Of a DNA stretch of 64,000 nucleotides, positions 17,816 to 61,033 are shown piece by piece; position 1 is the first letter of the stretch; every line of letters starts with the position of its first letter. The notes under the pieces are model-generated. The model searched no databases. It had not been told where the DNA came from and worked only from the letters and a program-made list of their open reading frames with translations. The DNA comes from Myxococcota bacterium (GTDB lineage: Bacteria; Myxococcota_A; Polyangia; Nannocystales; Nannocystaceae): contig JBCCHT010000005.1 of the NCBI GenBank assembly GCA_039028615.1, positions 160,001 through 224,000 of the forward strand, given 5' to 3'. A program made the translations under genes and the position numbers.

Positions 17816-20197
17816 TCAGGGGTCGATGGTCAGGAGCTGATCGCGCGGCACGTTGTTGAGCACCACCGTGTGATCGGTGGCGGGCCAGTACACCTCGACG
17901 CTGTGCACGGGAGCCAGGCCGTAGCCGAGCCCGAAGTGAGCGATGTTCTCGGCCTGCGCGAGGTAGTGGCTGGCCACCCCGATGTGCCGCATCATGATCG
18001 GCGCGCCGGGCTCGGTCTGTACGCGGACCACTGCGCCCACGCCCTGCGAGTTACCGCCCTGGCCACCCGCCCGGATGCCCAGCCACGATGCCACCTCGGC
18101 GTCGTTGCGATAAAAGCCCTGGATCTCGTGGTGCGAGTGCACCAGCACGTCGAGGTCGCCGTCGCGGTCGTAGTCGAAGGTGACCAGGCCGCGGCCCTCC
18201 CGGGTGAAGTCGATGCCGGCCGCGACCGCCATCTCGGTCCACGGACCCGGGCCGTCGTTGTGCCATAGCCGCAGCGGGTTGTCGGAGAAGCCGAAGCTCG
18301 GGTAGCCAGAGCCCAGGATGAGGTCGAGCGAGCCGTCGAGGTCCGCGTCGAACAGAGAGGTGCCCCAGCCCCAGTCGCCGAAGCGCACGCCGACGTCGTC
18401 GGTCGCGTCGTAGAAGTTCAGCCCGCCCTCGTTGCGATACATGCGGTTGCCGAAGAAGAACTGGCCCGGCCACCAGATCGACGACACGAACCAGTCGAGG
18501 TCGCCGTCGTTGTCGTAGTCGCCGAAGGTCGAGCCCATGCCCGCTTCGTCGGTGCCCACGCCGGCCACGTCGGTCATGTCGACAAAGCCGCCCGCGCCGT
18601 CGTTCCACCACAGGCGGCTGGTGCCGTAGTCCGCGGCGACGGCCAGCTCGGGATATCGATCGCCGTCGAGGTCGACGAACGCGGGCGAGAAGGGCCACGC
18701 GCCCTCCGGGGCCCCGACCGAAGCCGACACCGCCTGCATGTCGAGCCCGACCGCGAGCGTGACGTCTTCGAAGAAGCCGGGGCTGGCCGCGCCGAGGTTG
18801 TGCAGCAGCCGGAAGTGGTCTTCGCCTGGACCCAGCTCGATGTTCGAGTGCCACTCGCCCAGCAGCAGGTCCATGTAGCCGTCGAGGTCGTAGTCTCCGA
18901 CGGCCACGCTCATGCCCACGTGCGGGCGCAGCGTGGTGATGTCGGCCCCGCGAATGAGCGCCTCGTCGGTGAAGTGCCCCGTGCCGTCGTTGACGTAGAG
19001 GTAGTAGCGCATCTCGGCGACGACGGAGACCATGAGGTCGAGGTCGCCATCGCCTTCGATGTCGACCCAGGCCACGCCGCCCGTGGAGTAGGAATCGGTG
19101 AGGCCGGCCGAGGCCGCGACGTCGACGAAGGTCCCGTCGCCCTGGTTGTGGAGCAGCCAGTCGGGCCCGTTCATGCGGGTCATGTAGACGTCGGGCCACC
19201 CGTCGTTGTCGTAGTCGGCCACTGCGACCGCGCCCACGATGTAGTCCGGGGTGCAGTAGTTGCCCATCTCCCACGGCTCGGTGACGTCGTCGAGCGAGCA
19301 GAAGGGGGGCGGCAGCAGGTCACCCGCATCGAGGTCGAGGCCGGCTTCGATGGTCACGTCGGTGAACATCGGCAGCGGGATGTCGGGTGGCGGCGCGCCC
19401 AGGTCGAACAGCGGCGTGCCCACGTCCAACAAGGGATCGCCGCCCGAGCCCACGCCGCTGGTGCCTCCGGGATCCGTCGTTCCGACCCCGTCCGTGTCCG
19501 TGCCGCCCGTACCCCCGGATTCGCTGGTGAAGACGGTGTCGCTGGAGAAGTCGGTGTCGGTGAAGAAGGTATCGCCGCCCGTGGTGCCTCCCGAAAAATC
19601 GGTGGTGCCTCCAGAGAAGTCGGTGGTGCCTCCAGAGAAGTCGGTGGTGCCTCCAGAGAAGTCGGTGGTGCCACCCGAGAAGTCGGTGGTGCCTCCCGAA
19701 AAATCGGTCGTGCCGCCGCCCCCGAAGGTGCTGCCGCCGGAGAAGTCGGTCGTGCCACCGCCGCCGTCGGAACTCCCCCCGGGAAGCGTGGTCGCCGAGA
19801 CGGTGTCGCTGCCCGAGGCATCGGTGGTGCCACCGGGGAGATCGGTGGTGCCGGAGGACTCGGTCTGTGGCCCGCTTTCGCCCGAGTCCTCGGGGGGCGG
19901 CATGCCGTCGCCGCTGGACGAGTCGGTGCCAATCGAGTCGGCGCTGTCGATCCCCGCGGTGGTGTCGGTGGCCGCATCGGCGTTGCCGTGGTCGGTGCTC
20001 CCAGGGGAGCCGGTGGCGTTGCCCGTGGCCTGGCCGCTGGAACCATCGGCGTTCGGAGTCGCGGCCGAGGTGTTCGCGCTGGGGGTCGACGCGTCGTCGC
20101 CACTGGCCGTGGTCATCACCGGGACCGGGTCCGAGTCGACACAACCACCGGCGAGCACGATGGCAACGGAAACATGGAACCGACGAAGACCCAGCAT
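17816..20197 (-). CDS. CRTAC1/ASPIC-UnbV family FG-GAP repeat lipoprotein with long low-complexity stalk
   Basis: Lipobox LAGGC; repeated DYDNDGxxD loops; GNSQGVGAVVRV..HFGLG..VEVYWP UnbV domain. Confidence 0.88.
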   Translation of the reverse strand: MLGLRRFHVSVAIVLAGGCVDSDPVPVMTTASGDDASTPSANTSAATPNADGSSGQATGNATGSPGSTDHGNADAATDTTAGIDSADSIGTDSSSGDGMPPPEDSGESGPQTESSGTTDLPGGTTDASGSDTVSATTLPGGSSDGGGGTTDFSGGSTFGGGGTTDFSGGTTDFSGGTTDFSGGTTDFSGGTTDFSGGTTDFSGGTTGGDTFFTDTDFSSDTVFTSESGGTGGTDTDGVGTTDPGGTSGVGSGGDPLLDVGTPLFDLGAPPPDIPLPMFTDVTIEAGLDLDAGDLLPPPFCSLDDVTEPWEMGNYCTPDYIVGAVAVADYDNDGWPDVYMTRMNGPDWLLHNQGDGTFVDVAASAGLTDSYSTGGVAWVDIEGDGDLDLMVSVVAEMRYYLYVNDGTGHFTDEALIRGADITTLRPHVGMSVAVGDYDLDGYMDLLLGEWHSNIELGPGEDHFRLLHNLGAASPGFFEDVTLAVGLDMQAVSASVGAPEGAWPFSPAFVDLDGDRYPELAVAADYGTSRLWWNDGAGGFVDMTDVAGVGTDEAGMGSTFGDYDNDGDLDWFVSSIWWPGQFFFGNRMYRNEGGLNFYDATDDVGVRFGDWGWGTSLFDADLDGSLDLILGSGYPSFGFSDNPLRLWHNDGPGPWTEMAVAAGIDFTREGRGLVTFDYDRDGDLDVLVHSHHEIQGFYRNDAEVASWLGIRAGGQGGNSQGVGAVVRVQTEPGAPIMMRHIGVASHYLAQAENIAHFGLGYGLAPVHSVEVYWPATDHTVVLNNVPRDQLLTIDP
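19580..19762 (-). repeat. 21-bp coding tandem repeat (GGTTDFS), about 6 contiguous copies plus degenerate ones
   Basis: Unit GGTGGTGCCTCCAGAGAAGTC repeated head-to-tail with synonymous variation and no spacers. Confidence 0.9.
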
Positions 20198-20303
20198 GAG
20201 CGCGACCCCGATAGTGTAGGGCGACGCCCGCAGGCGATGCGAGAACGAAACTTCTCGGATTCGTGTCGAGGCGAAATGCCCCTTCGGAATCGCGCCCGGC
20301 CGG

Positions 20304-22376
20304 CTAAAACCGCAGCCCCATGACGAAGCCGGGCCAGACCCGCACCCGCACTTCATCGACGGTGCTGCGGTAGACCTGCGGACCCCATTGGTAGAAGCCC
20401 GGCCGGGAGAGCAGCTCGGTCGTGCCGCGGTCGACCAAGACGTTCACCGTCGGGCCACCGAACACCGTTAGTCGCGAGTACGGACTCCAGCCGACCATGA
20501 AGCGCAGCTTGCCCAGCGGATCGGGCGTGGTGGGCGTGGAGAGGCCGCGGAACACCGCATGCCACCCCAGATCGATGTCGACGAACATCTTGTGCTGCAG
20601 CGGCACGTGCCCGCCGAAGCCGGCGCCGACGCGCCAGCTCTGTCCCGTTCCCGCGGGATGGATGGCCCCTTCGATGAACGAGTAGGTGTAGGTCGCAGGG
20701 AGTCGTAGTGCGACCCCGATGGCCGCGTCGTCGCTCAGCGTGATCTCGGGATGGACATTGCCCTCTCGGGTCACCGAGACGAGGCCGACGCCGGCATCGG
20801 TGCGACCGGCGAAGTTGAGCAGACCGACCTGGGCGCCTTTGACGTCCTTGCCCACGTTGACCAGGCCGAGCTGGAGGCCACGCATGGTGCCCACGATGTC
20901 GACCAGGCCCATCTGCACGCCGGGCTCTACGGTCTCGGCGTAGTTGACCATCGAGCTTTGGAATCCGGCGACGGAGCTGGCGTGGTTGAAGAACATCGAC
21001 AGCTGGGCCCCGTCGACTTGCCCCGCGAGGTTGCCCACCGTCGACAGCTGGGCTCCGTTCATGGCGCCTCGCACCACGCTCGCGCCTCCGGCCAGGGCGG
21101 CGCCGTCGAGCTGATCGACGCGGCTCCACCCGAGGGCGAAGCTGACTTTGTTGCGCAGCTTCTTGCCCGACTGGTCTTGGCCGTTGAGGCTGAGCGGCGG
21201 GAACACCCCCACGTTGACGGGAATGGTGGTGAACTCCGCTTCGGGGTCGGTCGGCGGGGCCGTGTCCCCGCGCTGCACGGTGGACTCGCGATCGACCTTG
21301 GTCAGGGCGTCGGGTTCGAGCGCCGCCACGCCGTCGGGACGCAGGGTGAGCTCGCCTCGCCACAGGTCTTGGCCATCGTCGACCCGCACCTGGTAGTGCC
21401 CGGGCTCGAGCGCCAGCGCGACCGTGCCGGAGCCCGGAGGCTTGTACAGCTCGGCGGCCAGCTTGCCCGCATCGTTGCGCACCGAGATGCGCCCACCGAT
21501 CGCCGACGAAAGCTCGATGCGCGCGGTGGTCTCGCGCAGGTCGGTCATGACCAGGTCGCCGGAGCCCGCCAGCTGGATGTCGTACGCGGCATGCTGAGCG
21601 CCGCCGCGGGTGGTCTCGGTGCGCGCGAGGGTCTCGTCGAACGCGAACTGGTAGGCCTCCGAAAGCGTGATGAGACGGTCGCCGTCGACATCCGCCGCCC
21701 CGCGCAGTCCGGTGGTGAAGTAGTGGGTGAAGAACGAGCCGCCGATGCGATCGGATTCCTGTGCCGCCTCGTCGATGGAGCTGCTGGTGAGGAACGCGTG
21801 GCCTTTGACGTCGGTGGTGTTGCTGACCAAAAAGGGCGCCCGCTTCTTGCCGCCCTTGGCTCGGGTGAAGGCCCCCGAGGCGCACGAGTCGAGCACCGCG
21901 ATGCGAACGTCGGCCGGGACCTTCTGCACGCGCTGGCGGAGCTGCTTGTACGAGACCCGGTCGCCGCCGAGCAAAAGGCCCTGCTCGTCGGAGTGCCCCG
22001 AGTAGTAGAAGATGAACTGGACGTGCTGGCCGTCGGCGCGAGCGGCCTCGATGCGCTCGCTGAGGGTGGCGAAGGCCTCCTCGAGGGCGGCGGGATCGGG
22101 GTCGGTGAGGGTGGTGCGGTCGTGGCCCGAGACGCCGCCGAAGCGCTCGAGCACGGCCCCCAGCGCCGCCGCATCGCTGCCCGCGTAGCGCAGCACCACC
22201 CGGTCGTGCCCGCCGTCGTTGGCGCCCACGACCAGGGCGAAGCGGCGCAGCGCCGGGGTGGGCACGGTGGTCTCGGCCGTGGCGTCGGTGGGCTGAGCCT
22301 CGGCGATCGTCACCGCGCCCAGGGCCACGAAGGCCCCGGCGAGCAGCGAGGGAAGGGCGGACCACAGGCGAGTCAT
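20304..22376 (-). CDS. Exported caspase-family (peptidase C14) protein with beta-helix repeats and putative outer-membrane C-terminus
   Basis: Signal peptide; RFALVVGAN, YYSGHSD (His), LDSCASG (Cys), SFFTHY; GxQxGxxN repeats; ends ...VWPGFVMGLRF. Confidence 0.9.
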   Translation of the reverse strand: MTRLWSALPSLLAGAFVALGAVTIAEAQPTDATAETTVPTPALRRFALVVGANDGGHDRVVLRYAGSDAAALGAVLERFGGVSGHDRTTLTDPDPAALEEAFATLSERIEAARADGQHVQFIFYYSGHSDEQGLLLGGDRVSYKQLRQRVQKVPADVRIAVLDSCASGAFTRAKGGKKRAPFLVSNTTDVKGHAFLTSSSIDEAAQESDRIGGSFFTHYFTTGLRGAADVDGDRLITLSEAYQFAFDETLARTETTRGGAQHAAYDIQLAGSGDLVMTDLRETTARIELSSAIGGRISVRNDAGKLAAELYKPPGSGTVALALEPGHYQVRVDDGQDLWRGELTLRPDGVAALEPDALTKVDRESTVQRGDTAPPTDPEAEFTTIPVNVGVFPPLSLNGQDQSGKKLRNKVSFALGWSRVDQLDGAALAGGASVVRGAMNGAQLSTVGNLAGQVDGAQLSMFFNHASSVAGFQSSMVNYAETVEPGVQMGLVDIVGTMRGLQLGLVNVGKDVKGAQVGLLNFAGRTDAGVGLVSVTREGNVHPEITLSDDAAIGVALRLPATYTYSFIEGAIHPAGTGQSWRVGAGFGGHVPLQHKMFVDIDLGWHAVFRGLSTPTTPDPLGKLRFMVGWSPYSRLTVFGGPTVNVLVDRGTTELLSRPGFYQWGPQVYRSTVDEVRVRVWPGFVMGLRF

Positions 22377-22936
22377 GGGCGCTTTTCGAGCGTGACGGAG
22401 CGTTGTTGCCAGCGACGGGGCAAGGGCAGGGGAGAGTGTCGCGCGTCGGGGCCTCGGGTCGTCACCCGCTGCGCGGCATCGAGGGCCGCGGGCACGTCGA
22501 TGGGATCGTGACCCGAAGTGATGAAGACGAACCGTTCATAGGATTGTGCATCGTCGAGCTCGTAGGCGTGATCCAGCGCATGGAGGCCGGTGCGAACGAG
22601 GCGAGTCGATGCCTGGGGACCCGAAGGATGGTGCAAGGTCACTTCTCCTCGACCATCGATCGACAGCACGACCCCGTGTTGGTTGCCTGCCGCCACATAG
22701 CTTATCTGCACCAGATCTCCGGCATGCGCCACGGCACCCTCGGACAGCTCTTCGATAGTCCCGTCACGCTGCCGATGGATCACCAGATGTGGCGCCAAAC
22801 CTTTGATTCGGACCGGATCCGTCCGGTCCTCGTCGCGCGGGTCCGCAGGCGCCGGGCGCTCGCGGTCGGGCTCGATGGGGGTGCAGGCGACCGCGAGCGC
22901 AAGCACCGCAAACCACATGGGGATGAGCTTCGGCAT
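22373..22936 (-). CDS. Stand-alone DUF4384/ActD-like domain lipoprotein
   Basis: Lipobox LAVAC; GDLVQISY..SIDGRGEVTLHHP..YELDDA..YERF aligns by eye with the C-terminus of 23552-24412; stop overlaps the caspase ATG. Confidence 0.8.
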   Translation of the reverse strand: MPKLIPMWFAVLALAVACTPIEPDRERPAPADPRDEDRTDPVRIKGLAPHLVIHRQRDGTIEELSEGAVAHAGDLVQISYVAAGNQHGVVLSIDGRGEVTLHHPSGPQASTRLVRTGLHALDHAYELDDAQSYERFVFITSGHDPIDVPAALDAAQRVTTRGPDARHSPLPLPRRWQQRSVTLEKRP

Positions 22937-22952
22937 CCTCGTCGCCCCCTTC

Positions 22953-22979
22953 AACACCGACGCGGCCCGTCCCTGTCCC
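22953..22979 (-). promoter_or_regulatory. ECF promoter motif A, copy 1 (before the lipoprotein-caspase operon)
   Basis: GGGACA-N13-TCGGTGTT on the minus strand; same spacing as copies at 23005 and 24455. Confidence 0.65.
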
Positions 22980-23004
22980 CGGGTTGAGATTTTTGAGGGC
23001 AAGT

Positions 23005-23031
23005 GTGACGCTTCGGCCCGCCTTCGGTGTT
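23005..23031 (+). promoter_or_regulatory. ECF promoter motif A, copy 2 (before the sigma/anti-sigma operon)
   Basis: GTGACG-N13-TCGGTGTT. Confidence 0.7.
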
Positions 23032-23057
23032 GCACGGACCGGACGCGGGGCACCCCT

Positions 23058-23555
23058 TTGGCCGTCGACGTCGATTTGATGTACCGCCGCTACGGACCGA
23101 TGGTCCTACGGCGCTGTCGGCAGATCCTCGGGGATCCGCAGCAGGCTCATGACGCCATGCAGGATGTCTTCGTACAGCTCGTGCGCAGCCAGGAGCGCCT
23201 CGACGATCGGGGCAGCTCCAGCCTGCTTTACCGCATGGCCACCAACCATTGTCTCAACCGACTGCGCTCGGCCCGGCGCAAGCCCTCCGATCCCGATACC
23301 GACGCCATCGCCCGCCTGGCCGCGGCGGGGGCCGAGGTCGATCGCGGCGAGGCCCGGGCGGTGCTCCGTCGGCTCTTCGGGGGCGAGCCCGAGTCGACCG
23401 CCACCATCGCGATGCTGCACCTGCACGACGGCCTGACCCTCGAGCAGACGGCGGAGCAGGTGGGCATGTCCGTCTCCGGGGTGCGCAAGCGCCTCCGCAA
23501 GCTCCGGGCCGCGCTCACCGATCTGTCGGCCGACGCCGCCGAGGTACGACCATGA
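23058..23555 (+). CDS. ECF sigma-70 factor
   Basis: YRRYGPMVLRRC..AHDAMQDVFV, LYRMATNHCLN, region-4 HTH GLTLEQTAEQVGMSVSGVRKRL; start TTG 23058 or ATG 23079. Confidence 0.92.
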   Translation: MAVDVDLMYRRYGPMVLRRCRQILGDPQQAHDAMQDVFVQLVRSQERLDDRGSSSLLYRMATNHCLNRLRSARRKPSDPDTDAIARLAAAGAEVDRGEARAVLRRLFGGEPESTATIAMLHLHDGLTLEQTAEQVGMSVSGVRKRLRKLRAALTDLSADAAEVRP

Positions 23556-24412
23556 ACGAACCGTCGCCCAAGCCCGTGCCCGATCTATGGGTAGAGAAGC
23601 TCGCGCTCGGTGAGCTTCCCGAGGCGGAGGCCGAGGCCCTGCGCGCGCGGCTCGAGGCCGATGGAGACGAGCGACTCGTGGCGATCGAGCACTCGAACGA
23701 GGCCATCTTGCGCGAGCATCCACCGGCCGAGGTCGCCGCCGAGATCGAGCGACGCCTGCGAAGGCTGGAGACCGAGGCCGAAGCGCCGAGACGCCCGATG
23801 TTCTGGGTCTGGGCGCCCGTGGCCGCCGTCGCCTGTGTCGGCGTGATCTGGTTGGTGAGAGGGGCCGGCTCGTCCGACGAGGGCCTCGCTTCGAAGCCGG
23901 ATTCCGAGCTCATCGCCCGCGGCGATCCGAGACCGACGGTGGACTCCGCGGGGGCAGCCGCCGATGCTGGTCCGGAGACCATCTATCTCAAGGGCGACCC
24001 CCAGCTCATCGTCGATCGCATCGAGGCGGGACGTCTCGTTCGCATGGATGCCGAGCACGCGGTGGCCTCGGGGGACCGGCTCCAGCTGGCGTACTTGGCC
24101 AACGGTGCGGCGACGGGGGTCATCGTCTCCATCGACGGGGCCGGGGTGGCCACGCTTCATTTCCCCGAGACGGAAACCGCGGCTGCGACGCTTCGCCACG
24201 GAGGGTCGATACCTCTGCGCACGAGCTACGAGCTCGACGACGCCCCCGACTACGAGCGCTTCTTCTTCGTGACGGCCGACGAGTCCGCGAAGCTGAGCGC
24301 GGCGCGGGTCATGGACGCCGCACGGGCGCTGGCCGGGAGCCCCACGGCGCAGCAGGGCTCGCTCGAGCTGCCCGCGGCGTGGCGTCAGCAATCGTTGACG
24401 CTGCGCAAGTAG
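23552..24412 (+). CDS. Membrane anti-sigma factor with periplasmic DUF4384/ActD-like domain
   Basis: ATGA overlap with the sigma gene; anti-sigma-like N-terminus PDLWVEKLALGELP; one TM helix; GDRLQLAY..SIDGAG..YELDDAPDYERF. Confidence 0.8.
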   Translation: MNEPSPKPVPDLWVEKLALGELPEAEAEALRARLEADGDERLVAIEHSNEAILREHPPAEVAAEIERRLRRLETEAEAPRRPMFWVWAPVAAVACVGVIWLVRGAGSSDEGLASKPDSELIARGDPRPTVDSAGAAADAGPETIYLKGDPQLIVDRIEAGRLVRMDAEHAVASGDRLQLAYLANGAATGVIVSIDGAGVATLHFPETETAAATLRHGGSIPLRTSYELDDAPDYERFFFVTADESAKLSAARVMDAARALAGSPTAQQGSLELPAAWRQQSLTLRK

Positions 24413-24454
24413 CCGCCGCGAGTGTGACCTCGATCGCACCTGGGTCGGATCGAG

Positions 24455-24481
24455 GTGACGCGAACTCGGAGCGTCGGTGTT
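24455..24481 (+). promoter_or_regulatory. ECF promoter motif A, copy 3 (before the Cys-repeat lipoprotein)
   Basis: GTGACG-N13-TCGGTGTT. Confidence 0.7.
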
Positions 24482-24491
24482 CGAGGGAGTG

Positions 24492-25346
24492 ATGACAAAC
24501 CCGCTCTTGAACCTACGCTTGGACTTCATCCGCCGTCGCTGGGCCCTGGGAGGCCTGTTGGGTCTGGGACTCGGACTCGGCTGCACCTATACCGAGATCG
24601 GCGACTACCACGGCGTCGAGGCGTGCCACGACGAGTTCTTCGACTGTCTGGACGACGCCGACGACGAAAAGGACATCGAGGCCTGCGAGGTCGCCAAAGA
24701 CTCCTGTCTCGAGGCGTGCGTCGATGATGACGATTGGCGCGGCGACGAGGACGACGACGACAATGTCGACGATGCAGGCGACGACGCGGGGGCGGGCGAT
24801 GACGGAGACGAGCCCCCGGGAGACGACGGGCGGGTGCCGGATGATGACGGCGGAGCCGATGACGGCGGGGCCGATGACGGCGGGGCCGATGACGGCGGGG
24901 CCGATGATGGCGGAGCCGACGACGGGGGAGCCGACGGCGGTGGCGAGCCGCATCCCGCCTGCTTCGAGCTGCACGCGACCTGCGTGAGCCAGGCGACCAC
25001 CATCGCCGAGGTCGAGGCCTGCGAGGCGCTCTTCGACCAGTGCCTGGAAGCCGAGGAATGCGACGACACCTGCAAGGATCCGGCGTGCCCCGATCCCGAG
25101 GTCAGCGCGTGCCTCGAGATCCACGCCGCCTGCTCGGCGTCGGCGAGCTCGCCCGATGTGGTCGCGGCCTGCGGGGCGGCCTTCGATGCCTGCGTGCAGG
25201 GCATCGACGACTCGGCCTGTGTGCCGCACGACCCGTCCATCGTCGACGCGTGTCTCGAGCAGCATGAGCTGTGCACGACGTGCATCGAGGGCCCCGAAGA
25301 CCTCTGGGTTTGCCAGGACGTCTTCGATGCATGCCTGGCGGGGTAG
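24492..25346 (+). CDS. Acidic Cys-repeat lipoprotein (four CX6C-X12-CX6C units)
   Basis: SD GAGGGAG; lipobox LGLGC; exact Cys spacing repeated four times. Confidence 0.75.
   Translation: MTNPLLNLRLDFIRRRWALGGLLGLGLGLGCTYTEIGDYHGVEACHDEFFDCLDDADDEKDIEACEVAKDSCLEACVDDDDWRGDEDDDDNVDDAGDDAGAGDDGDEPPGDDGRVPDDDGGADDGGADDGGADDGGADDGGADDGGADGGGEPHPACFELHATCVSQATTIAEVEACEALFDQCLEAEECDDTCKDPACPDPEVSACLEIHAACSASASSPDVVAACGAAFDACVQGIDDSACVPHDPSIVDACLEQHELCTTCIEGPEDLWVCQDVFDACLAG
24844..24939 (+). repeat. 15-bp coding tandem repeat (ADDGG), about 6 copies
   Basis: GCCGATGACGGCGGG units. Confidence 0.85.
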
Positions 25347-26796: not shown

Positions 26797-28350
26797 TCAG
26801 TCGACCCATCCTTGCAGGAACCAACTTCGTCGGACTCGGTCGTAGAACACCCACAAGATTTCACCGGATTGGGTCTCGACGAAGTAGTAGTCCCGCTCGA
26901 CCGTGCGCACCCACCATCCTCCGCTGATGCGATAGGGCCCCTGGATCGAGCGGACCGGGCCGCGATGACCGAGCCAGGCCTCGGGTTCATGACGAGGGGG
27001 GCTGGGCAATCGCTGGGGCCGAGGCAGCAGGCGGCGGACCAGCGGTGTCGGCTCGGGAGCGGGGGGCTGGGTGCCCGGCTCGATCGGAGTGCCCACGACC
27101 TCGGGACGCGCGAAGCCGATCTCGCCGATGGGCTCCCACGCAAAGCGAGCCTCGGGCAGGTGGGCTTCGCGGAGCTGAGCGCGGGTGACCGCCTCGGGCC
27201 CCAGCCAGGCACGGAGCCGTGCGAGGGCTCGGGCGGCGGCATCGAGATCGCGGCGGGCCTGGGTTCGGAACAACGCCAGCTGCCCCGGTGCGGCCTCGAC
27301 CCCGGCCAGCTCCAGCACGATTTCCTCCACGGGGGCGTCCAGGGTCGCGGCATCGAGGCGCAGGCGAACCAGATCGATCACCATTGGCTCGTCCAGGGTC
27401 GGGCGCGCGGGCTCGATGCGTTCTTCGTGCGGCTCGGCGTGGTCGAGGTGCAGGCGCAGGTGCAGCGCGGTCATGGCCTGGTGGCGCCCCGCGAGCTCGA
27501 CCATCAGGTCGTGCAGCATGCTCTTGATGAGGAAGAGCAGCCGCGAACGGTCGTCGTCGGGCGGCTCGATCTGCTTGGTGGTGCGAACCGGATCGACGAT
27601 GGCGCGGGGCTGAAGCGGAGCCCAGCCATCGCTGGCGCAGGCGTGCAGCTGGGCCGCCGCCTCTCCGAAGCGCGCCCGCAGGTCGGGAGCGGGGAGGGCG
27701 AGCAGCTGCCCCAAGGTCCGAACCTCGAGTCGCCGGAGCCCCTCGCGAGCCTTGGCCGGCATCGATAGCTCGACCAGCGGCACCTGGTCGGCGGCCTTCC
27801 GCTCCGCGCCCGGATCGTCGAGTACCCACACGCCCCGCCGAACCCGAGCCAGCGCGTGACATCGAAATCGGTGGTAGCCCACGACCACCGTCGAGCGCAG
27901 CGACAGCTCGGCCATCGCGCTGACGACCGCGTGACCCCAGTGCTCGAAGCTGGTGAACAAGGGCACCATGCCCGAGGGGTCGAGCCAGAAGGTCCCGGGT
28001 GCGCCCTCGACCTGTCGCTGCGGGGTGGCGGTGCGTTGGGCGGCCTCGATGCGCGGCGAAAAATCCTGCAGGCGTCGGACCACCTGCTCGATCGTCTCGT
28101 CGATCTGCTCGGGTCCCACCACACCCGCCCGGACCCCCGCGTCCAGGCTCTGCGCGGCGGCGTAGCTCATGCCGGGACGAATGCGGGATCGTTGCGCGTG
28201 CTCGTTGACCCACTGCACCTCGGCTTGCGGGCGGTCGTCGGCGACCACCACCACCGCGCTGTTGGCCCACGTCGGCTCGCGGCGCAGCAGCAGCTGGAGA
28301 GGTAACGCCGGCACTTCGAGGCATGCGGCACGGTCGTGAAGGGCGGACAT
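26797..28350 (-). CDS. imuB: ImuB, inactive Y-family polymerase of the mutagenesis cassette
   Basis: VNEHAQRSRIRPGMSYAAAQSL, FSPRIE, LEVRTLGQLLALP..L.ARFG, QLALF clamp-like motif, GPYRISGGWW..RDYY..W.LQGWVD. Confidence 0.9.
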   Translation of the reverse strand: MSALHDRAACLEVPALPLQLLLRREPTWANSAVVVVADDRPQAEVQWVNEHAQRSRIRPGMSYAAAQSLDAGVRAGVVGPEQIDETIEQVVRRLQDFSPRIEAAQRTATPQRQVEGAPGTFWLDPSGMVPLFTSFEHWGHAVVSAMAELSLRSTVVVGYHRFRCHALARVRRGVWVLDDPGAERKAADQVPLVELSMPAKAREGLRRLEVRTLGQLLALPAPDLRARFGEAAAQLHACASDGWAPLQPRAIVDPVRTTKQIEPPDDDRSRLLFLIKSMLHDLMVELAGRHQAMTALHLRLHLDHAEPHEERIEPARPTLDEPMVIDLVRLRLDAATLDAPVEEIVLELAGVEAAPGQLALFRTQARRDLDAAARALARLRAWLGPEAVTRAQLREAHLPEARFAWEPIGEIGFARPEVVGTPIEPGTQPPAPEPTPLVRRLLPRPQRLPSPPRHEPEAWLGHRGPVRSIQGPYRISGGWWVRTVERDYYFVETQSGEILWVFYDRVRRSWFLQGWVD

Positions 28351-30983: not shown

Positions 30984-32231
30984 CTAGCGCAGTCGCCCTT
31001 TGTGGCCTTCGCTGCGCAGCTGCTCGTCGATGTCTCGTCGAACCTCTCGCCCTTGCTTCTTCAGGGCTCGCATCCGTCGACGCTGTCGCGATGCGTTCGG
31101 AATGGCACCGTCCAGGCACGCCCGAATCTGCTTGCGCATGTTGTGGAAGTCGCGGCTCATGTTGCGCGCGGGGGCGGTCACGCCGAAGTCGAACGCGCTG
31201 ACGATCTTCCCTCGTGCGTACTCCAGCATGTACGTGTTCGGCTCGGCCGTATAGATCTTGGTGTCGCCGGCCATCAGCTTGGCCCAGCTGCCCGGGGCCA
31301 TGACCCGGGGCTCCAGGTCGCCCACGTGGTGGGTTCGCATCTCGCCGATCATGGTCCAGTCGTGGACGTCGACGGTGTAGCGACCGGAGTAGCCGTTGAC
31401 CCCCATGGGGGTGCCAAAGATGATCAGGTACTCGCGGCGCGAGCAGTAGAGCATGCGGTAGTGCCCCAGGGCTCCGCCCGCGAAGTTCCACACCATGCTC
31501 TGCTCGGTGGGCTCGAGCTGCACGGTGGGGAAGGATTCGGTGACGCCCCGGCGGGTGCGATCGAACAGCGCCTGCATCTGCACTTGGTTGTGCAGGTGCA
31601 CGCGGTCGCGCGCGGCGTCGAGGTCGGGGTCGGGGACCGGCGTCTTCTGAGGCGGGTAGGGGATGGGCTCCAGGCTCGGCGGGTGCAGGGCGGAGTCGAT
31701 GGCGATCTGGTGGAGCATCTCCAGGTCGAACACGTGGTCCCGCGCCTTGCGGAGGCACCGGAGCTCGGCACCGGTTCGCTTCTTGGTGCGGCACTCCTGG
31801 ATCTGTGCGGTCGACAGCCGCCGGTCGGCCATGACCTCGAGGCAGTCGATGCGGTCGGAGCCTTCGTAGCCGCGGCAGGTCTCGAGCGAGCGCGGGGTGT
31901 AGCTCCGCTCGGCGATCATTCGGGCGCACTGCAGAGCCTGCGGCGGCGCGTCGGGGGCCGACTCGGCACACAGCGCGAGGGCTTGGGCGTCGAAGTGCCG
32001 GGTCGAGGCGATGGCCTGGCAGGCGTCGCGATCCGCGGTCTCGGTGAACGCGTCGCACAGCGCCTGCGCTTGGGGAGCGGTGCCCTCGACCCACGCGTGC
32101 TTCGTTTTTTCGGCGGCGGGGGCCAGCGGCGGAGGATCGTGTCGGGCGGCGCAACCGAGGCTCAGCAGCACGCTGGCCAGCGAGGCTCGGGTGATGAATC
32201 GACGAAGGGCGGGGGTCCGGGAGCTACGCAT
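30984..32231 (-). CDS. Lipoprotein with Cys-rich repeats fused to an ERG2/sigma-1 receptor-like domain
   Basis: Lipobox LSLGC; VWNFAGGALG, EYLIIFGT..GYSGRY, VHDWT, YMLEYARGKI match recalled ERG2/SIGMAR1 motifs. Confidence 0.85.
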   Translation of the reverse strand: MRSSRTPALRRFITRASLASVLLSLGCAARHDPPPLAPAAEKTKHAWVEGTAPQAQALCDAFTETADRDACQAIASTRHFDAQALALCAESAPDAPPQALQCARMIAERSYTPRSLETCRGYEGSDRIDCLEVMADRRLSTAQIQECRTKKRTGAELRCLRKARDHVFDLEMLHQIAIDSALHPPSLEPIPYPPQKTPVPDPDLDAARDRVHLHNQVQMQALFDRTRRGVTESFPTVQLEPTEQSMVWNFAGGALGHYRMLYCSRREYLIIFGTPMGVNGYSGRYTVDVHDWTMIGEMRTHHVGDLEPRVMAPGSWAKLMAGDTKIYTAEPNTYMLEYARGKIVSAFDFGVTAPARNMSRDFHNMRKQIRACLDGAIPNASRQRRRMRALKKQGREVRRDIDEQLRSEGHKGRLR

Positions 32232-32325
32232 GCGGAGGCTTCGTTGAGGCGGGCGTGATGCACCGAGGGGTCGGCCGCGCGCCGCGCCGAACCGTATCAC
32301 GTCCCTCGTGGGCCTCCACGGACCG

Positions 32326-48597: not shown

Positions 48598-50121
48598 GTG
48601 ACACGTCGACTTCCTCTTTCGTTTCTCGGTGCGGCGTTGCTCGTCTCGACGGCGGGCGCGCCTGCGAGTGCGTCGCCCACCGTCGGGTCTCCTCCGAGGG
48701 TCGACTACTCGGGGCATGCCTCGGTGCTGGTCACGGTCTCCGATTCGGCGCAGCGTGCCTGGCTCGAGACCCACGCGCGGCTCGTGGACGACCACGGGGG
48801 CACGGCGGTGCTCGCCGTGATCGAGCGGGGTCGCCTGCTGTCGCTCTTGGAGCAGGGCCTGAGCTTCGAGGTGCGGGAACACGACATCCAGCGGGCCATC
48901 GATCGTGTGTATGGCGACGCGCCCGTACCTGCCCGCTGGGGGCCGTTCTTCACCGATTTCGCCACCAACGAGCAGATGAGGGCGTTCGTCGACGGCCTGG
49001 GCGAGCACGAAGGAGCGAGCGTCACCGACTACGGCAGCTCGGTCGAGGGGCGTCCGCTCCAGGCGCTGCTCGTCGGGGATGGCTCGCAACCCACCGTGGC
49101 CGTGCTGGGGACGCAGCACGCACGCGAGTGGATTTCTCCGATGGTGACCGGCTGCCTCGCCCAGGCGTTCGCGAGCGCCGAGGACCCGGCTGTGGCCGAG
49201 CTCGTCGAGCGCCTGGATTTCGTGTTCGTGCCCATCGTCAACCCCGATGGCTACGCGTACTCGCACCAGGTCGATCGGCTGTGGCGAAAGAACCGACGCA
49301 ACGGTCACGGGGTCGACCTCAACCGCAATTGGGACGTGCACTGGGGGCTGGGCACGGCGGGGGCCGGCGTCGGCAGTGAGGCCTACCCGGGCACGGCAGC
49401 CTTCTCGGAGCCGGAGACGGCCGCCATCGCGGAGCTGCTGTCCGATCGCGAGCTCGTCGGGTTCTTCGACTATCACTCGCCCATCGCGGTCGTGCTCTAT
49501 CCCTTCGCGTTCACGTCGACGCCGAGTCCCGAGGAGGAGCGCGAGCTCTCATGGGGGCAGGCGATGGCCGACGCCATCGGAGCGGTGCACGGGGTGACCC
49601 ACGGCGTGACCAAGCCGGGGCAGGGCAACCCTTCGGGGGGCTTGGCGCAGGACTGGGCGCTCGATGATCGCGGCGCTCTGGCGTGGACGATGGAGCTGCG
49701 CGGGGGTAACGGCGGGGGCGGGTTCATCATCGATGCCAGCGAGATCGGGCCCGCATGCGACGAGAACCTGGCCGGCTTCATCGAAGGCGTGTCGCGCATC
49801 GCCGACGAGTTCGGTGAGGACCCCGCACCACCGCCGACCGGCACCTCGGGAGCAGCGGACTCGGGAGGCGACGACGGGACCGACCCGGACGAGTCGGGCG
49901 ATGGATCACCCGGGGCTACGGACGGCAGCGAGCCGGGCACGGGCGGCACGGCATCGGAGGAGGACGACGACGGCGCCGATCTGCCCACGTCGACCGCGGA
50001 TGCAGGTGCGATGGGTGGGGGCGTCGACGGTTGTGCTTGCCGCACCCGCGGCGCCACGGGTTACGCGGGCGCCTGGGTGCTGCTCGGCCTGCTGTTCGCC
50101 CGACGTCGCCGGACGCTCTGA
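48598..50121 (+). CDS. M14 zinc carboxypeptidase with MYXO-CTERM-like tail
   Basis: HAREW, NPDGY, WRKNR, GVDLNRNW, DYHS, ELRG; GCAC-TM-RRRR. Confidence 0.92.
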   Translation: MTRRLPLSFLGAALLVSTAGAPASASPTVGSPPRVDYSGHASVLVTVSDSAQRAWLETHARLVDDHGGTAVLAVIERGRLLSLLEQGLSFEVREHDIQRAIDRVYGDAPVPARWGPFFTDFATNEQMRAFVDGLGEHEGASVTDYGSSVEGRPLQALLVGDGSQPTVAVLGTQHAREWISPMVTGCLAQAFASAEDPAVAELVERLDFVFVPIVNPDGYAYSHQVDRLWRKNRRNGHGVDLNRNWDVHWGLGTAGAGVGSEAYPGTAAFSEPETAAIAELLSDRELVGFFDYHSPIAVVLYPFAFTSTPSPEEERELSWGQAMADAIGAVHGVTHGVTKPGQGNPSGGLAQDWALDDRGALAWTMELRGGNGGGGFIIDASEIGPACDENLAGFIEGVSRIADEFGEDPAPPPTGTSGAADSGGDDGTDPDESGDGSPGATDGSEPGTGGTASEEDDDGADLPTSTADAGAMGGGVDGCACRTRGATGYAGAWVLLGLLFARRRRTL

Positions 50122-50133
50122 CGGGACCTGGCC

Positions 50134-51489
50134 CTACTCGGTCTGCGGATCGGACACGCGCCCGAAGAACAACAGCAGTCCGCTGGACTTGTCGCGGATG
50201 AAGTACAAAAAGGGCCGATCGACCTTGATCGTCCGGGGCTCACCCATGGGCGGGGCGCCGCCGAAGCGGGCCACCACCGCGGTGGCGGCTGCGGCCTCGG
50301 TGCCGTTTTCGTCGACCTCGATGAAGCCCTTGTGGAAGACCTCGGAGATCTGGATCTGTTCGGCGGCGGGAGCGATGCCCGTGAAATCCGCGTCGTCACC
50401 AAAGGCGCTCGTCATCCCCAGCGCCTTCAGGTGCGCGGCGAGCCGGAGGCTCTCGGAGGCGATGCGGAACTTGGGCATCGACAGCTCGACCTGCTCGTAC
50501 TTGGTCGCGCCCGTCCACTGACCGAGCAGCTCGGGCCCGAGGCTGGCCTCGATGGCGCCCAGGCCATCGCGCTCGTTTGGGACCACCAGCGTCATCGAGT
50601 AGCCCGGGTGCTGGTAGTCGAGGTGCACCACCGTGGCCCCGGGGGCGTCGTGCACCGCGAGCGACTGGTTGAGGTGCATGGTGGGCACGTTGCGCGAGCC
50701 GCTGGGCGCATGGAAGGTCGCGGGCGCGGTGCGGCTCTTGGTGAAGCCGTGCATCCACTGCGCCTTGAAATAGATGGCGTTGACCAGCGCGAGGCGAGTG
50801 TCCGAGGTGATGCCGCCCGGCGGCACGAGGTCCTTGATGCGGTCATGGGTCTTGCCCGCGACCCAGTCGTTGATGTGCACCCGCGAAGGATCGGCGGCGC
50901 CCTTGAAGTCGAGCGGCTCGAGGGGGGCCTGGAAGAAGCGCTGGGTCAGCGACAGGAACGGCTTTTCGAAGGGGACGGTCTTCTCACCGAAGAGCCGATT
51001 GGCCACCGACAGCTCGATGTCCGCCTCGCGGTCCTTGGTCCACGTGGCGAGCATGGTGGCCACGGCGGTCTGGACCACCGGAGCCGCGCGCGGGTAGTGC
51101 AGGGTGGTCTGCATCTGCTTGGAGGTCTGCGCCCGGGCCCCAGCCTGCGTCATGGTGAGGGCCAGGGCCACGCTCGCGGGGGAGATGACGACATCGCCGT
51201 CGCCGGTCGCGACCTTGCGATAAAGGTCGAGGCCGAAGTTGTTGAAGCCGGACGCGACCTCGGTGACGACCTCGGGCTCGGCGGTGGGCACCGGGCGCGG
51301 CTCGTCGGGCGCGTCATCGGCTCGCTCGGGCGGGGAGGCCTGAGACTCGGCCGACTCGTTGCCGGCGGCCGGGGGCTTCTCGGCGGTCTTGGTCGGGGTT
51401 TTTTGGGCAGGAGCCGTCTCGGCGCTGCCCCCGGAGGGGTTGCAGGCGGCGAGCAACACGGGGAGGATCGAGGGGCCAAGGCGTCGCAT
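50134..51489 (-). CDS. Serpin family lipoprotein
   Basis: Lipobox LLAAC; ISPAS, LVNAIYFKAQW, EVDENGTEAAAAT hinge, DRPFLYFI..FFGRV. Confidence 0.93.
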   Translation of the reverse strand: MRRLGPSILPVLLAACNPSGGSAETAPAQKTPTKTAEKPPAAGNESAESQASPPERADDAPDEPRPVPTAEPEVVTEVASGFNNFGLDLYRKVATGDGDVVISPASVALALTMTQAGARAQTSKQMQTTLHYPRAAPVVQTAVATMLATWTKDREADIELSVANRLFGEKTVPFEKPFLSLTQRFFQAPLEPLDFKGAADPSRVHINDWVAGKTHDRIKDLVPPGGITSDTRLALVNAIYFKAQWMHGFTKSRTAPATFHAPSGSRNVPTMHLNQSLAVHDAPGATVVHLDYQHPGYSMTLVVPNERDGLGAIEASLGPELLGQWTGATKYEQVELSMPKFRIASESLRLAAHLKALGMTSAFGDDADFTGIAPAAEQIQISEVFHKGFIEVDENGTEAAAATAVVARFGGAPPMGEPRTIKVDRPFLYFIRDKSSGLLLFFGRVSDPQTE

Positions 51490-51560
51490 GGGGGCGTCAG
51501 CACCAACGTACGGGTTGTGGTCGCGATCTGCCAGGACCCTGTTGTTAGACTCCCGCGGCT

Positions 51561-52448
51561 GTGCCCGACGCTTCCCCACCCACCAAGCCGCTGCGCGGCG
51601 GTGCCCAGGCCCTCGAGGTCGCGCGAGAGATCGTGGCAGTGCTCGAAGGCAGCAAGGGCCGAGCCGCCCTCGCCACGGTGATCGGGCGGACCGGATCGGC
51701 ACCACAGATCCTCGGCGCGCGCATGATGCTGCACCAAGACGGCGAGATCGTGGGCACGGTGGGGGGCGGGGCCATCGAAGCCGAGGTCCTGGCGAACTGC
51801 CGGATGACGCTTCGCGACGGTCGCCCGCGCCGGGTGGATGCCCAGCTCGTTCGCGATCTCGGGATGTGCTGCGGCGGCAGCATGGAGGTCTTCGTGGAAG
51901 TACTACAGCCTCAGGTCAGGTTGGTGATCATCGGTGCGGGCCATGTCGCGCAGGCGCTGGCGCCCATCGCCGAGGCGGCGGGCTTCCAGGTCGCGGTCTT
52001 CGACGATCGCGAGGAGCTGCTCGACAACCCGGCGTACTCGCAGGCCACCACCGGGGCCTATGACGTCGACGAACTCGCAGCCGCCCTGCCCACGCTGAGC
52101 CAGGACGACTATGTGGTCATTACCACCCGCGACCACGCCCGCGACGAGAAGGCGCTGGCGTCTCTGCTGCGACGACCGCATCGCTACCTCGGCATGATCG
52201 GCAGTCGTCGCAAGGTGCACGCGGTGCTGGGACGCATCTTGCGGCGGGAGCGACAGCTCGGACGTCCGCAGCCCGACCTCAGCCGGGTGCGGGCGCCGAT
52301 CGGGCTGTCGCTGGGGGGTCGAACCCCGGGCGAGATCGCGGTGAGCGTGGTGGCCGAGCTCATCGCCGAGCGCCACGGCGGCGCCGGGTCGCCCATGAGC
52401 GTCATCGAAGAAGCGGCGCAGCGCGTCGAGGCCGAGCTCGAGCAGTAG
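51561..52448 (+). CDS. XdhC/CoxI family molybdoenzyme accessory protein
   Basis: GSAPQ, GTVGGGAIE, CGGSMEVFVE, GAGHVAQ, YLGMIGSRRK, APIGL..TPGEIA. Confidence 0.9.
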   Translation: MPDASPPTKPLRGGAQALEVAREIVAVLEGSKGRAALATVIGRTGSAPQILGARMMLHQDGEIVGTVGGGAIEAEVLANCRMTLRDGRPRRVDAQLVRDLGMCCGGSMEVFVEVLQPQVRLVIIGAGHVAQALAPIAEAAGFQVAVFDDREELLDNPAYSQATTGAYDVDELAAALPTLSQDDYVVITTRDHARDEKALASLLRRPHRYLGMIGSRRKVHAVLGRILRRERQLGRPQPDLSRVRAPIGLSLGGRTPGEIAVSVVAELIAERHGGAGSPMSVIEEAAQRVEAELEQ

Positions 52449-60055: not shown

Positions 60056-61033
60056 TCACTCGCAGGTCGCGTTGTTGCCCGCGGAGACGTTGGAGCACTC
60101 GGCGTCCGCCGAGCAGCTGCCCTCGGCCTCGCAGTTGTCGCAGGCCTTCACCGTCGGGTTGAGGCAGTCGGGATCGACCGAGCCGCAGCCGCAGTCGCAG
60201 CCGTCGTGGCCGTGCCAGGCCTCGGCCGGACACGTCCACCCCGGCGGCAGGGTCGGGGGTCGATCGTCTTCCGCCGTGATCGAGACCGGAATCTCGACGA
60301 TGTTGTCGTCGTAGGTCGATTCTTCGAAGACCTGCTCGGGGTTGATCTCGATCTCCAGCACGTAGTTCCCCGGCTCGACATCGGTGACGTCGACCCACTG
60401 GCAATCGAGATAGGCGTCGTAGACGTCGGCCCAGCCGCGCGTGATGCCTTGCGTGCCATCGGGGAGGGGATAGCGAGGGGGCGGAGAGTCGAGGCCCAGC
60501 GCCTCGAAGTCGATGAGGGCGAAGGCCTGCTTGTGGCCGTTGCGAACCACCTTGCCGTTGGTGTCGAGCAGGCGGTAGACGGCGAAGTCCTTGAAGTGGA
60601 AGTGCTCGTGACACTCGCCGTACTCGAAGGCGTCGGGGTTGTCCTCGGGTCGGCCGACCACCAGATCGGCGTCGCCATCGTTGGGCGTGACCGTCTGAAA
60701 GCGCAGGACTCGACGGAGGCCCGGGGCGTCGACGCAGCCCTCGGCGACGGCACACCCATCCGCCTCGTATGCGGCGGTGCCCACCAGCGTGCTGCTGGCG
60801 ATGCGGTCGGCGACCGAGAGCATGTTGATGTTGGGCAGCCCATCGCCGTCGCCGTCGGTCACGTCGGCCGTGGTGTCCGCCGTCGGATCGGCCCGGGTGG
60901 CGTCGCCGCTCGTGCCCGTCGACGGGCCCGTGCTCACGCCCTCCGTCTCGGCGGGTGGTGCCGGATTACCCTCCGAAAGGCACGAAAACGCTCCTATCGA
61001 ACAAAGCAGACTGGTCGCTATCGCGCGGTTCAT
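60056..61033 (-). CDS. Lysyl oxidase family lipoprotein
   Basis: RRVLRF, CHEHFHF Cu-binding motif, GHKQAF (LTQ Lys), GWADVY..LDCQWVDVTDV.PGNY (LTQ Tyr), E..YDDN. Confidence 0.9.
   Translation of the reverse strand: MNRAIATSLLCSIGAFSCLSEGNPAPPAETEGVSTGPSTGTSGDATRADPTADTTADVTDGDGDGLPNINMLSVADRIASSTLVGTAAYEADGCAVAEGCVDAPGLRRVLRFQTVTPNDGDADLVVGRPEDNPDAFEYGECHEHFHFKDFAVYRLLDTNGKVVRNGHKQAFALIDFEALGLDSPPPRYPLPDGTQGITRGWADVYDAYLDCQWVDVTDVEPGNYVLEIEINPEQVFEESTYDDNIVEIPVSITAEDDRPPTLPPGWTCPAEAWHGHDGCDCGCGSVDPDCLNPTVKACDNCEAEGSCSADAECSNVSAGNNATCE

Follow-up and report, generated by a model that had tools for sequence, protein, structure and literature searches.

A conserved sigma/anti-sigma/caspase locus of a Myxococcota bacterium in which an exported caspase is the candidate site-1 protease

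We analysed a 64,000-nucleotide stretch of a Myxococcota genome (contig JBCCHT010000005.1, positions 160,001 to 224,000; hereafter the window), in which five genes at 20304-25346 encode an exported caspase, a sigma factor of the extracytoplasmic function (ECF) class, its predicted membrane anti-sigma factor and two lipoproteins. The sigma/anti-sigma/caspase system is real and conserved, and it is apparently uncharacterised. Linkage of the three genes, their domain anatomy, and the conservation of protein motifs and of a promoter, all seen directly, suggest that the caspase is probably the site-1 protease of the anti-sigma in a trans-envelope switch of the regulated intramembrane proteolysis (RIP) type.

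The five genes and the two ATGA overlaps given in a preliminary description of this DNA are real. On the minus strand, a lipoprotein gene (22936-22373; 187 aa, Cys18) overlaps the C14 caspase gene (22376-20304; 690 aa) at 22376-22373. On the plus strand, the sigma gene (23058-23555; 165 aa) overlaps the anti-sigma gene (23552-24412; 286 aa) at 23552-23555, and the gene for a Cys-repeat lipoprotein (24492-25346; 284 aa) follows. A TTG at 23058 is most likely the sigma start codon, because a start of the form M-A-V/I-D-V is common to the orthologs. Pfam and NCBIfam scans identified Peptidase_C14 and LA_2272 repeats in the caspase and a sigma-70 ECF factor in the sigma, where PF04542 and TIGR02937 both exceeded the cut-off in agreement with the earlier assignment; the same scans returned nothing significant for the lipoprotein, the anti-sigma or the Cys-repeat lipoprotein.

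A scan of GTDB confirmed 177 relatives, and the locus counts given here cover the best 80 of these 177. Sigma, anti-sigma and caspase genes occurred together in 59 of the 80 loci, or in 59 of the 69 with enough flanking DNA. The three genes were colinear in the order sigma, anti-sigma, caspase in 48 loci and rearranged in 11; five further loci had the anti-sigma and caspase without a nearby sigma gene, and 11 were too short to tell. The trio was found across Myxococcota, spirochaetes and other phyla; the surveyed loci also include some from Aminicenantes, Latescibacterota and Eiseniibacteriota, and a phylum sample gave a match in 63 of 151 genomes. The layout of the window, which includes a lone immunoglobulin (Ig)-domain protein, accounted for four of the 11 rearranged loci and for 4/80 overall. 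Compared with the conserved core of three genes, the window locus is rearranged and restricted to its family. The proposal that the five genes form one system was partly supported: the core trio is widespread, and the five-gene layout itself is a family-level rearrangement. The window's genome contains two further sigma/anti-sigma/caspase operons (C24:26547-23743 and C29:126049-122271, both on the minus strand), whose caspases differ from that of the window at their C-termini. The C24 operon encodes a zinc-binding anti-sigma (ZAS) protein and has KG motifs; the C29 operon has RG motifs in both proteins. Two other loci deserve mention. At L070:173-4781, translations place a caspase ortholog without a sigma pair behind TonB-like, TonB-receptor-like and lipoprotein genes, and L027, from a record titled Comamonas, has a Myxococcus-like anti-sigma/caspase layout and promoter position; its label may be wrong.

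The caspase is predicted to comprise a signal peptide (about residues 1-27), a caspase domain, an Ig-like domain, a beta-helix and a C-terminal outer-membrane barrel (20304..22376, minus strand). PF00656 matched it at 2e-10, above the cut-off. The catalytic dyad H128/C165 (21882..21995, minus strand), previously described as intact, falls in invariant columns, with the His in 82/82 and the Cys in 83/83 relatives, and the predicted export is supported by a hydrophobic N-terminal stretch in 77/79 relatives. Four acidic residues, D68, D163, E203 and E207, are also invariant. They likely form the pocket for a basic P1 residue, a role that we presume from metacaspases and MALT1, and as such they are consistent with cleavage after Arg or Lys.

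An AlphaFold2 model of the caspase built from a 51-row alignment had a mean predicted local distance difference test score (pLDDT) of 87.6 and a predicted template modelling score (pTM) of 0.54, and ordered the domains as caspase, Ig-like, flexible linker, beta-helix and eight closing strands. In VIA comparisons the caspase domain matched metacaspase 4 (Z 20.3, root-mean-square deviation (rmsd) 2.9, 208 aligned). The beta-helix repeats that had been noted earlier are of the LA_2272 type and are predicted to form a stalk (20787..21161, minus strand) on the evidence of NF047436 over its cut-off, model strands and VIA beta-helix matches. The terminal Phe that had been taken as typical of outer-membrane proteins is present, but the C-terminus is a full predicted eight-stranded barrel of the OmpA/NspA type (20307..20771, minus strand) and not a Phe alone; VIA matched it to NspA (Z 14.3, rmsd 2.3, 132 aligned) and to the OprF barrel (Z 14.2), with model residues 488/502-656 in the barrel matches. 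Because eight-stranded barrels keep both termini in the periplasm, the modelled caspase domain probably hangs inward and faces the periplasm.

The anti-sigma (23552..24412, plus strand) is of the ActD family. Its AlphaFold2 model comprises a helical N-terminal domain, predicted to be cytoplasmic, a single transmembrane helix in keeping with the membrane location first proposed, a disordered linker with pLDDT<50 (residues 103-144) and a DUF4384-like Ig sandwich. The sigma has regions 2 and 4 only and is followed at position +1 by this single-pass gene. The anti-sigma matched a putative anti-sigmaE model weakly (E 0.003), and the ZAS motif HxxxCxxC was found in 36/54 distant anti-sigma paralogs; this anatomy and the ZAS-bearing paralogs suggest that it binds the ECF sigma. 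DUF4384 (PF14326) itself was matched by neither the anti-sigma nor the lipoprotein of the window; 17 of 58 anti-sigma orthologs matched it weakly at E<=0.05 (best 4.7e-6). The Ig domain of the anti-sigma had no Foldseek match at E<=0.001 and no specific match in VIA (best Z 9.1).

The lipoprotein encoded upstream of the caspase (22373..22936, minus strand) consists of a lone DUF4384-like Ig domain behind Cys18 and carries an R43-I-K-G motif. It was correctly described as a paralog of the anti-sigma, since it is 35% identical over 173 aa to the C-terminal domain of that protein. A survey of 41 related genomes for lone Ig-domain proteins identified 20 that match the anti-sigma C-domain, five of them without a returned locus and some overlapping the 80 surveyed loci. 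A lone Ig-domain protein was seen in nine genomes, seven of which have both RxKG and a lipobox-like Cys in it; the exceptions are G170, with a sequence gap, and G173, which has neither feature. In a quick tree of 148 columns, the lipoproteins clustered with a full-length anti-sigma encoded ahead of the caspase gene in L006 (Shimodaira-Hasegawa-like approximate likelihood ratio test value of 89). Because they form their own clade beside this protein, the tree suggests that the lipoproteins arose when an ancestral anti-sigma encoded next to the caspase lost its cytoplasmic domain. A recent duplication of the adjacent anti-sigma was considered and rejected, as the lipoproteins group apart from the window anti-sigma clade.

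A promoter motif common to the three transcription units had been proposed, and chance does not account for it: GKGACR-N13-TCGGTGTT has three of three sites in the window, whereas the mean of shuffled sequences was 0.07 and 0/100 shuffles reached three. These ECF-type sites precede the lipoprotein-caspase unit (22953-22979, minus strand; degenerate -35), the sigma-anti-sigma unit (23005-23031, plus strand) and the Cys-repeat lipoprotein gene (24455-24481, plus strand), the last of which also has the motif before its orthologs in L005, L007, L080 and L189. With a matrix trained without the window, from a seed pattern picked after viewing the sigma upstream regions, the lipoprotein-caspase promoter was the weakest of the three, scoring 13.6 bits vs 25.5 and 20.8 for the other two; orthologous loci have a canonical site at this degenerate position. 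Of 59 orthologous sigma genes, 49 have the consensus GTRACA-N14-CGGTGTT upstream, among them genes of AT-rich spirochaetes (0/30 shuffles); at the level of sequence this supports the positive autoregulation put forward in the preliminary description. Where cassettes are broken up, each separated unit has its own copy of the promoter. Among paralog cassettes the motif was found in just 3/55 distant sigma upstream regions, and no copy was found at the paralog operons on C24 or C29. Judged by this distribution, the promoter is family-specific.

Across the 12.3-Mb genome there are five exact motif sites at the true spacing vs 0-1 at 13 other spacings, and likewise five sites above 22 bits vs 0-1 at shifted spacings. 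The promoter appears to define a small envelope regulon that would depend on the sigma. The fourth exact site, on C3, precedes a gene for a caspase-less paralog (G000:C3:317588-316275, minus strand; L198) that has a signal peptide and 42% identity to the beta-helix and barrel of the caspase without its protease domain, and that is a candidate decoy anchor. Strong sites also precede genes for a lipoprotein that resembles a beta-lactamase (C5:257728), a YHS lipoprotein (C2) and a lipoprotein on C47 whose ortholog in L180 is likewise motif-led. A weaker site on C50 (16.3 bits) precedes a lipoprotein gene and then a copper type II monooxygenase gene; this small lipoprotein/monooxygenase region of the window's genome spans G000:C50:12917-14948. 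The Cys-repeat lipoprotein of the window, which appears to be one of several regulon members, is acidic (79 Asp/Glu and 23 Cys among 284 residues) and contains four C-x6-C-x12-C-x6-C repeats, and nothing specific matched it when folds were searched.

Recurrent motif-led targets in other genomes were the monooxygenase in seven loci, the small lipoprotein in three, ExbB in two and the Cys-repeat protein in four, and the barrel paralog was motif-led in six cassette loci plus L188. The motif-led monooxygenase lipoprotein (L013, L014, L015, L022, L043, L186 and L190) stands alone or behind its small partner lipoprotein and has a cytochrome c-like N-terminal part in L190. One may speculate, from the copper monooxygenase, the YHS protein and the Cys/His-rich proteins in the regulon, that the cue is a metal or a redox change. 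Under a strict filter, a gene start followed four of the 14 sites that scored above 16 bits at the true spacing vs 5 of 69 at shifted spacings. A large dispersed regulon was rejected, as sites rise above the background only from about 20 bits upwards. The best-scoring site in the genome, C38:101574 (minus strand; L199), has no protein gene downstream and could belong to a small RNA or to a gene that has decayed.

A dipeptide of a basic residue and Gly is shared by the end of the anti-sigma linker, two flexible loops of the caspase and the lipoprotein, and we regard these recurring sites as candidate cleavage sites. In the anti-sigma, the candidate site-1 dipeptide K147-G148 (23990..23995, plus strand) ends the low-pLDDT linker and is invariant in 58/58 aligned proteins; an automated alignment window found KG at this site in 66/68, and the remaining two have TRLKG further upstream. 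In the caspase, the first candidate autoprocessing site is R172-A-K174-G175 (21852..21863, minus strand), in a low-pLDDT loop after the catalytic Cys, where the R-x-K-G pattern is conserved at R in 80/83, K in 82/83 and G in 83/83. The second, a candidate release site at R369-G370 (21267..21272, minus strand), lies in the low-pLDDT linker between the Ig-like domain and the beta-helix; R or K and G are each found in 79/79, and KG or RG is present here in most distant paralogs too. Orthocaspases favour basic residues at the cleavage site, according to the excerpted text of PMC8283722.

The identity of the basic residue in the caspase loop and at the anti-sigma site matched in 113 of 117 scorable pairs among 121 (KK 101, RR 12, RK 2, KR 2; four rows left out and one re-registered by hand). 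As statistical proof of co-variation this comparison was rejected: Fisher's test gave a p of 1e-12, but there are three tree-independent pairs, for which a sign test gave p=0.5. A complex prediction of the caspase and Ig-like domains with the periplasmic part of the anti-sigma scored 0.14 against a mark of 0.32, with the controls not folded, and we count it neither for nor against the model.

According to the mechanism that we propose, the anti-sigma would tether the ECF sigma to the inner membrane, and the exported caspase zymogen would use its barrel as an anchor in the outer membrane and hang into the periplasm on its beta-helix stalk, a topology predicted because the number of barrel strands is even. 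An envelope cue would cluster or unlock the caspase, which would make two cuts in its own chain, one behind K174 that matures the active site and one behind R369 that frees the protease from the stalk. The caspase would cut the anti-sigma after K147 and remove its Ig domain, and RseP would then cut within the membrane such that the sigma is released; the window's genome has two RseP genes. The sigma would transcribe from GTRACA-N14-CGGTGTT promoters its own genes and a handful of envelope lipoproteins. This positive loop may be damped by the RxKG lipoprotein, a candidate decoy substrate or inhibitor, and by the caspase-less beta-helix/barrel paralog as a decoy anchor. We tentatively extend the analogy to a death-receptor-like circuit, in which the barrel would be the 'receptor', the caspase would activate itself on clustering, clip itself off its stalk, travel through the periplasm and cut the anti-sigma at the motif where it also cuts itself, and the induced decoys, a receptor that lacks the caspase and a substrate-like lipoprotein, would set the threshold. 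Such a circuit would serve gene regulation.

Several observations weigh against the caspase as site-1 protease. In five loci with room for all three genes, the caspase has no sigma/anti-sigma pair nearby. The ZAS motif is missing from the window anti-sigma and was found in 0/68 close anti-sigmas, and it is therefore by inference that these proteins bind a sigma. Conserved basic-Gly dipeptides also occur inside folded parts (R225-G in 70/75 and K191-G in 43/75), and therefore the case for cleavage sites rests on location and recurrence. The invariance of K147-G148 could be structural, as the dipeptide abuts the Ig domain, and the window anti-sigma lacks the P3 Arg carried by most orthologs. On a 56-row tree the K/R match comes down to roughly two co-switches that are independent of each other (L162 and the C29 clade), which is not significant; L152 and L168 are discordant, and L121 and L125 are probably misaligned. 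Above 16 bits, promoter sites numbered 14 at the true spacing vs 2-21 at shifted spacings, with no enrichment. Finally, NCBIfam labels the LA_2272-type repeat family 'surface'.

In a less likely reading, the caspase is an output of the switch. Here the anti-sigma would use its Ig domain to sense the cue and be cut by a housekeeping site-1 protease, and the induced caspase would then process envelope proteins, with the KG-bearing Ig domain of both the anti-sigma and the lipoprotein as its inhibitor or pseudo-substrate. In rearranged loci a separate sigma-type promoter precedes the caspase unit, the lipoprotein with the KG-Ig domain only is coupled to the caspase gene and keeps RxKG in 7/7 readable cases, and DUF4384 is often fused to proteases in the portion of bioRxiv 2022.08.17.504292 that deals with it. 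The P3 Arg is absent from the coupled anti-sigma in 6/9 genomes, but this loss is essentially an event of one lineage, and a causal role of the lipoprotein was not established; the G176 anti-sigma lacks the P3 Arg despite the absence of a lipoprotein. Since the anti-sigma KG is invariant with or without the lipoprotein, and the caspase stays beside the anti-sigma where the sigma has moved (the actD-caspase pair of Myxococcus xanthus), we consider it unlikely that the caspase is an output and not the trigger.

Signalling of the FecA/FecR/FecI kind, non-proteolytic or scaffold-based, would make the barrel a receptor that contacts the anti-sigma Ig domain, the KG a structural element and the protease a device for self-maturation only. 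This is improbable in view of the invariant dyad and acidic pocket and of the recurrence of the same dipeptide in two caspase loops, where it tends to co-switch with the anti-sigma, even though cell-surface signalling offers a parallel for an outer-membrane barrel with an N-terminal periplasmic domain and a neighbouring anti-sigma, the motif leads ExbB genes in L059 and L182, and the KG abuts the Ig fold. Least credible is an autotransporter-like caspase displayed on or shed from the surface, acting on external substrates or in defence or cell death while the sigma pair merely controls expression: its beta-helix and C-terminal barrel resemble type V passengers (VIA matches to HxuA, EtpA and Ag43, Z 11-12) and the repeat is named 'surface', but the barrel is modelled with eight strands, matches NspA and OprF and so belongs with barrels that have periplasmic termini and no translocation pore, and PADLOC had no match at the locus. 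We therefore retain the caspase as the probable site-1 protease.

Directly downstream of the caspase gene and on the same strand, the window encodes an exported FG-GAP/UnbV protein with GGTTDFS-type tandem repeats (17816-20356); this gene has no promoter motif of its own, and co-transcription with the caspase gene is possible. An ImuB-like protein with a weak IMS match (26797-28350) lies near the cassette and appears unrelated. Elsewhere in the window, genes for an M14 zinc carboxypeptidase and a serpin stand tail to tail (48598-51705), and two eukaryote-like families, ERG2/sigma-1 receptor (30987-32300) and lysyl oxidase (60059-61033), are represented.

The window anti-sigma is homologous over its full length to M. 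xanthus proteins in the ActD cluster, a name taken from databases (38% identity over 281 aa), and the gene that follows actD encodes a protein 40% identical to the window caspase. The M. xanthus order is actA-actB-actC-actD-caspase (L035; actD and the caspase ortholog occupy L035:4004-7169), whereas the gene order of the window is rearranged and its anti-sigma gene does not directly precede the caspase gene. The same promoter motif is found just upstream of actD, at the end of actC. M. xanthus has a single close homolog of the sigma, 56% identical, which is unlinked (on another contig, L173) and lies behind its own motif; the genome has four exact motif sites vs 0 for a control pattern, and no copy of the lipoprotein was seen in L035. 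In the original act study, actD is said to affect developmental timing, and as part of the tentative death-receptor-like scheme, a circuit of ActD, the product of the next gene and the unlinked sigma would explain this effect, which has long lacked an explanation. In a literature search with poor coverage of subscription journals, we found no description of ActD as an anti-sigma and no functional study of the sigma/anti-sigma/caspase trio.

Little is known of the proteins that bacterial orthocaspases naturally cut or of what these proteases do, and this family offers a named candidate substrate together with residue-level predictions (K147-G148, K174 and R369), a promoter consensus and a short regulon. 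If the proposed mechanism is true, the caspase class would join the site-1 proteases of ECF signalling, a signal would pass from the outer membrane to the cytoplasm without a TonB receptor, and the old developmental gene actD would gain a molecular function. Because the ortholog is a named M. xanthus gene, every step is testable in a tractable model organism.

In RIP of the RseA/DegS/RseP type, the known site-1 proteases that cut a single-pass anti-sigma are of other classes. Like RIP-type systems and ECF25, the window system has a single-pass anti-sigma at position +1. ECF25 also has DUF4384/ZAS anti-sigmas in the same phyla as the window family; it differs in that the ECF25 text of PMC7826278 mentions no neighbouring caspase gene and reports GGAAC/GTC promoters for two subgroups, not GTRACA/CGGTGTT. 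Operons of the window's family have very probably been noticed before. Four metacaspase operons of M. xanthus share sigma-70 factors, and sigma-70/metacaspase operons also occur in Anaeromyxobacter, Haliangium, Sorangium, Ralstonia and Fibrobacter (Asplund-Samuelsson et al. 2012, PMC3501461). The passages of that paper that concern them report co-occurrence only and describe no anti-sigma, no barrel that serves as anchor, no motif for cleavage, no promoter and no mechanism. New here are the promoter, the regulon and the link to ActD, and the window adds a lineage-specific lipoprotein that may act as a decoy.

The preliminary description took as its model a caspase/sigma/inhibitor module of Haliangium, the type III-B SAVED-CHAT/PCaspase/PCc-sigma/PCi cascade, which is similar in that a cleavage-activated C14 caspase is associated with a sigma and an inhibitor (bioRxiv 2023.06.23.546230). 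This model proved poor, since that caspase is activated through SAVED-CHAT and cuts the sigma itself as well as an inhibitor. The Haliangium module is CRISPR-linked and triggered by cA3, its dyad residues are 67 apart (H79/C146) and not 37 as in the window caspase, and the excerpted account describes neither a transmembrane anti-sigma nor an outer-membrane anchor. The CRISPR independence claimed for the window locus agrees with our scans, in which PADLOC had no match among seven proteins at the locus and Rfam had none within the window; no Cas or SAVED family was found among the scanned window proteins, the rest of the genome not being searched.

By analogy, DdvA/DdvS and RseA-type RIP are closer models than the Haliangium module. 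DdvS/DdvA of M. xanthus likewise combines an ECF sigma, a single-pass anti-sigma, a periplasmic His-Cys domain of caspase fold and RseP as the second protease; as given in the excerpted text of PMC11506125, the periplasmic CHAT domain of DdvA is proposed as the site-1 protease, with its cut in the juxtamembrane linker, and the RseP step is demonstrated. DdvA differs in that a TPR-CHAT protease is fused to the anti-sigma and the system controls a CRISPR island with a cyclic oligonucleotide-based antiphage signalling system (CBASS). No such fusion is present in the 286-aa anti-sigma of the window, which has a single small Ig domain; here the protease would be a separate C14 protein on a predicted barrel, and the regulon would consist of envelope lipoproteins.

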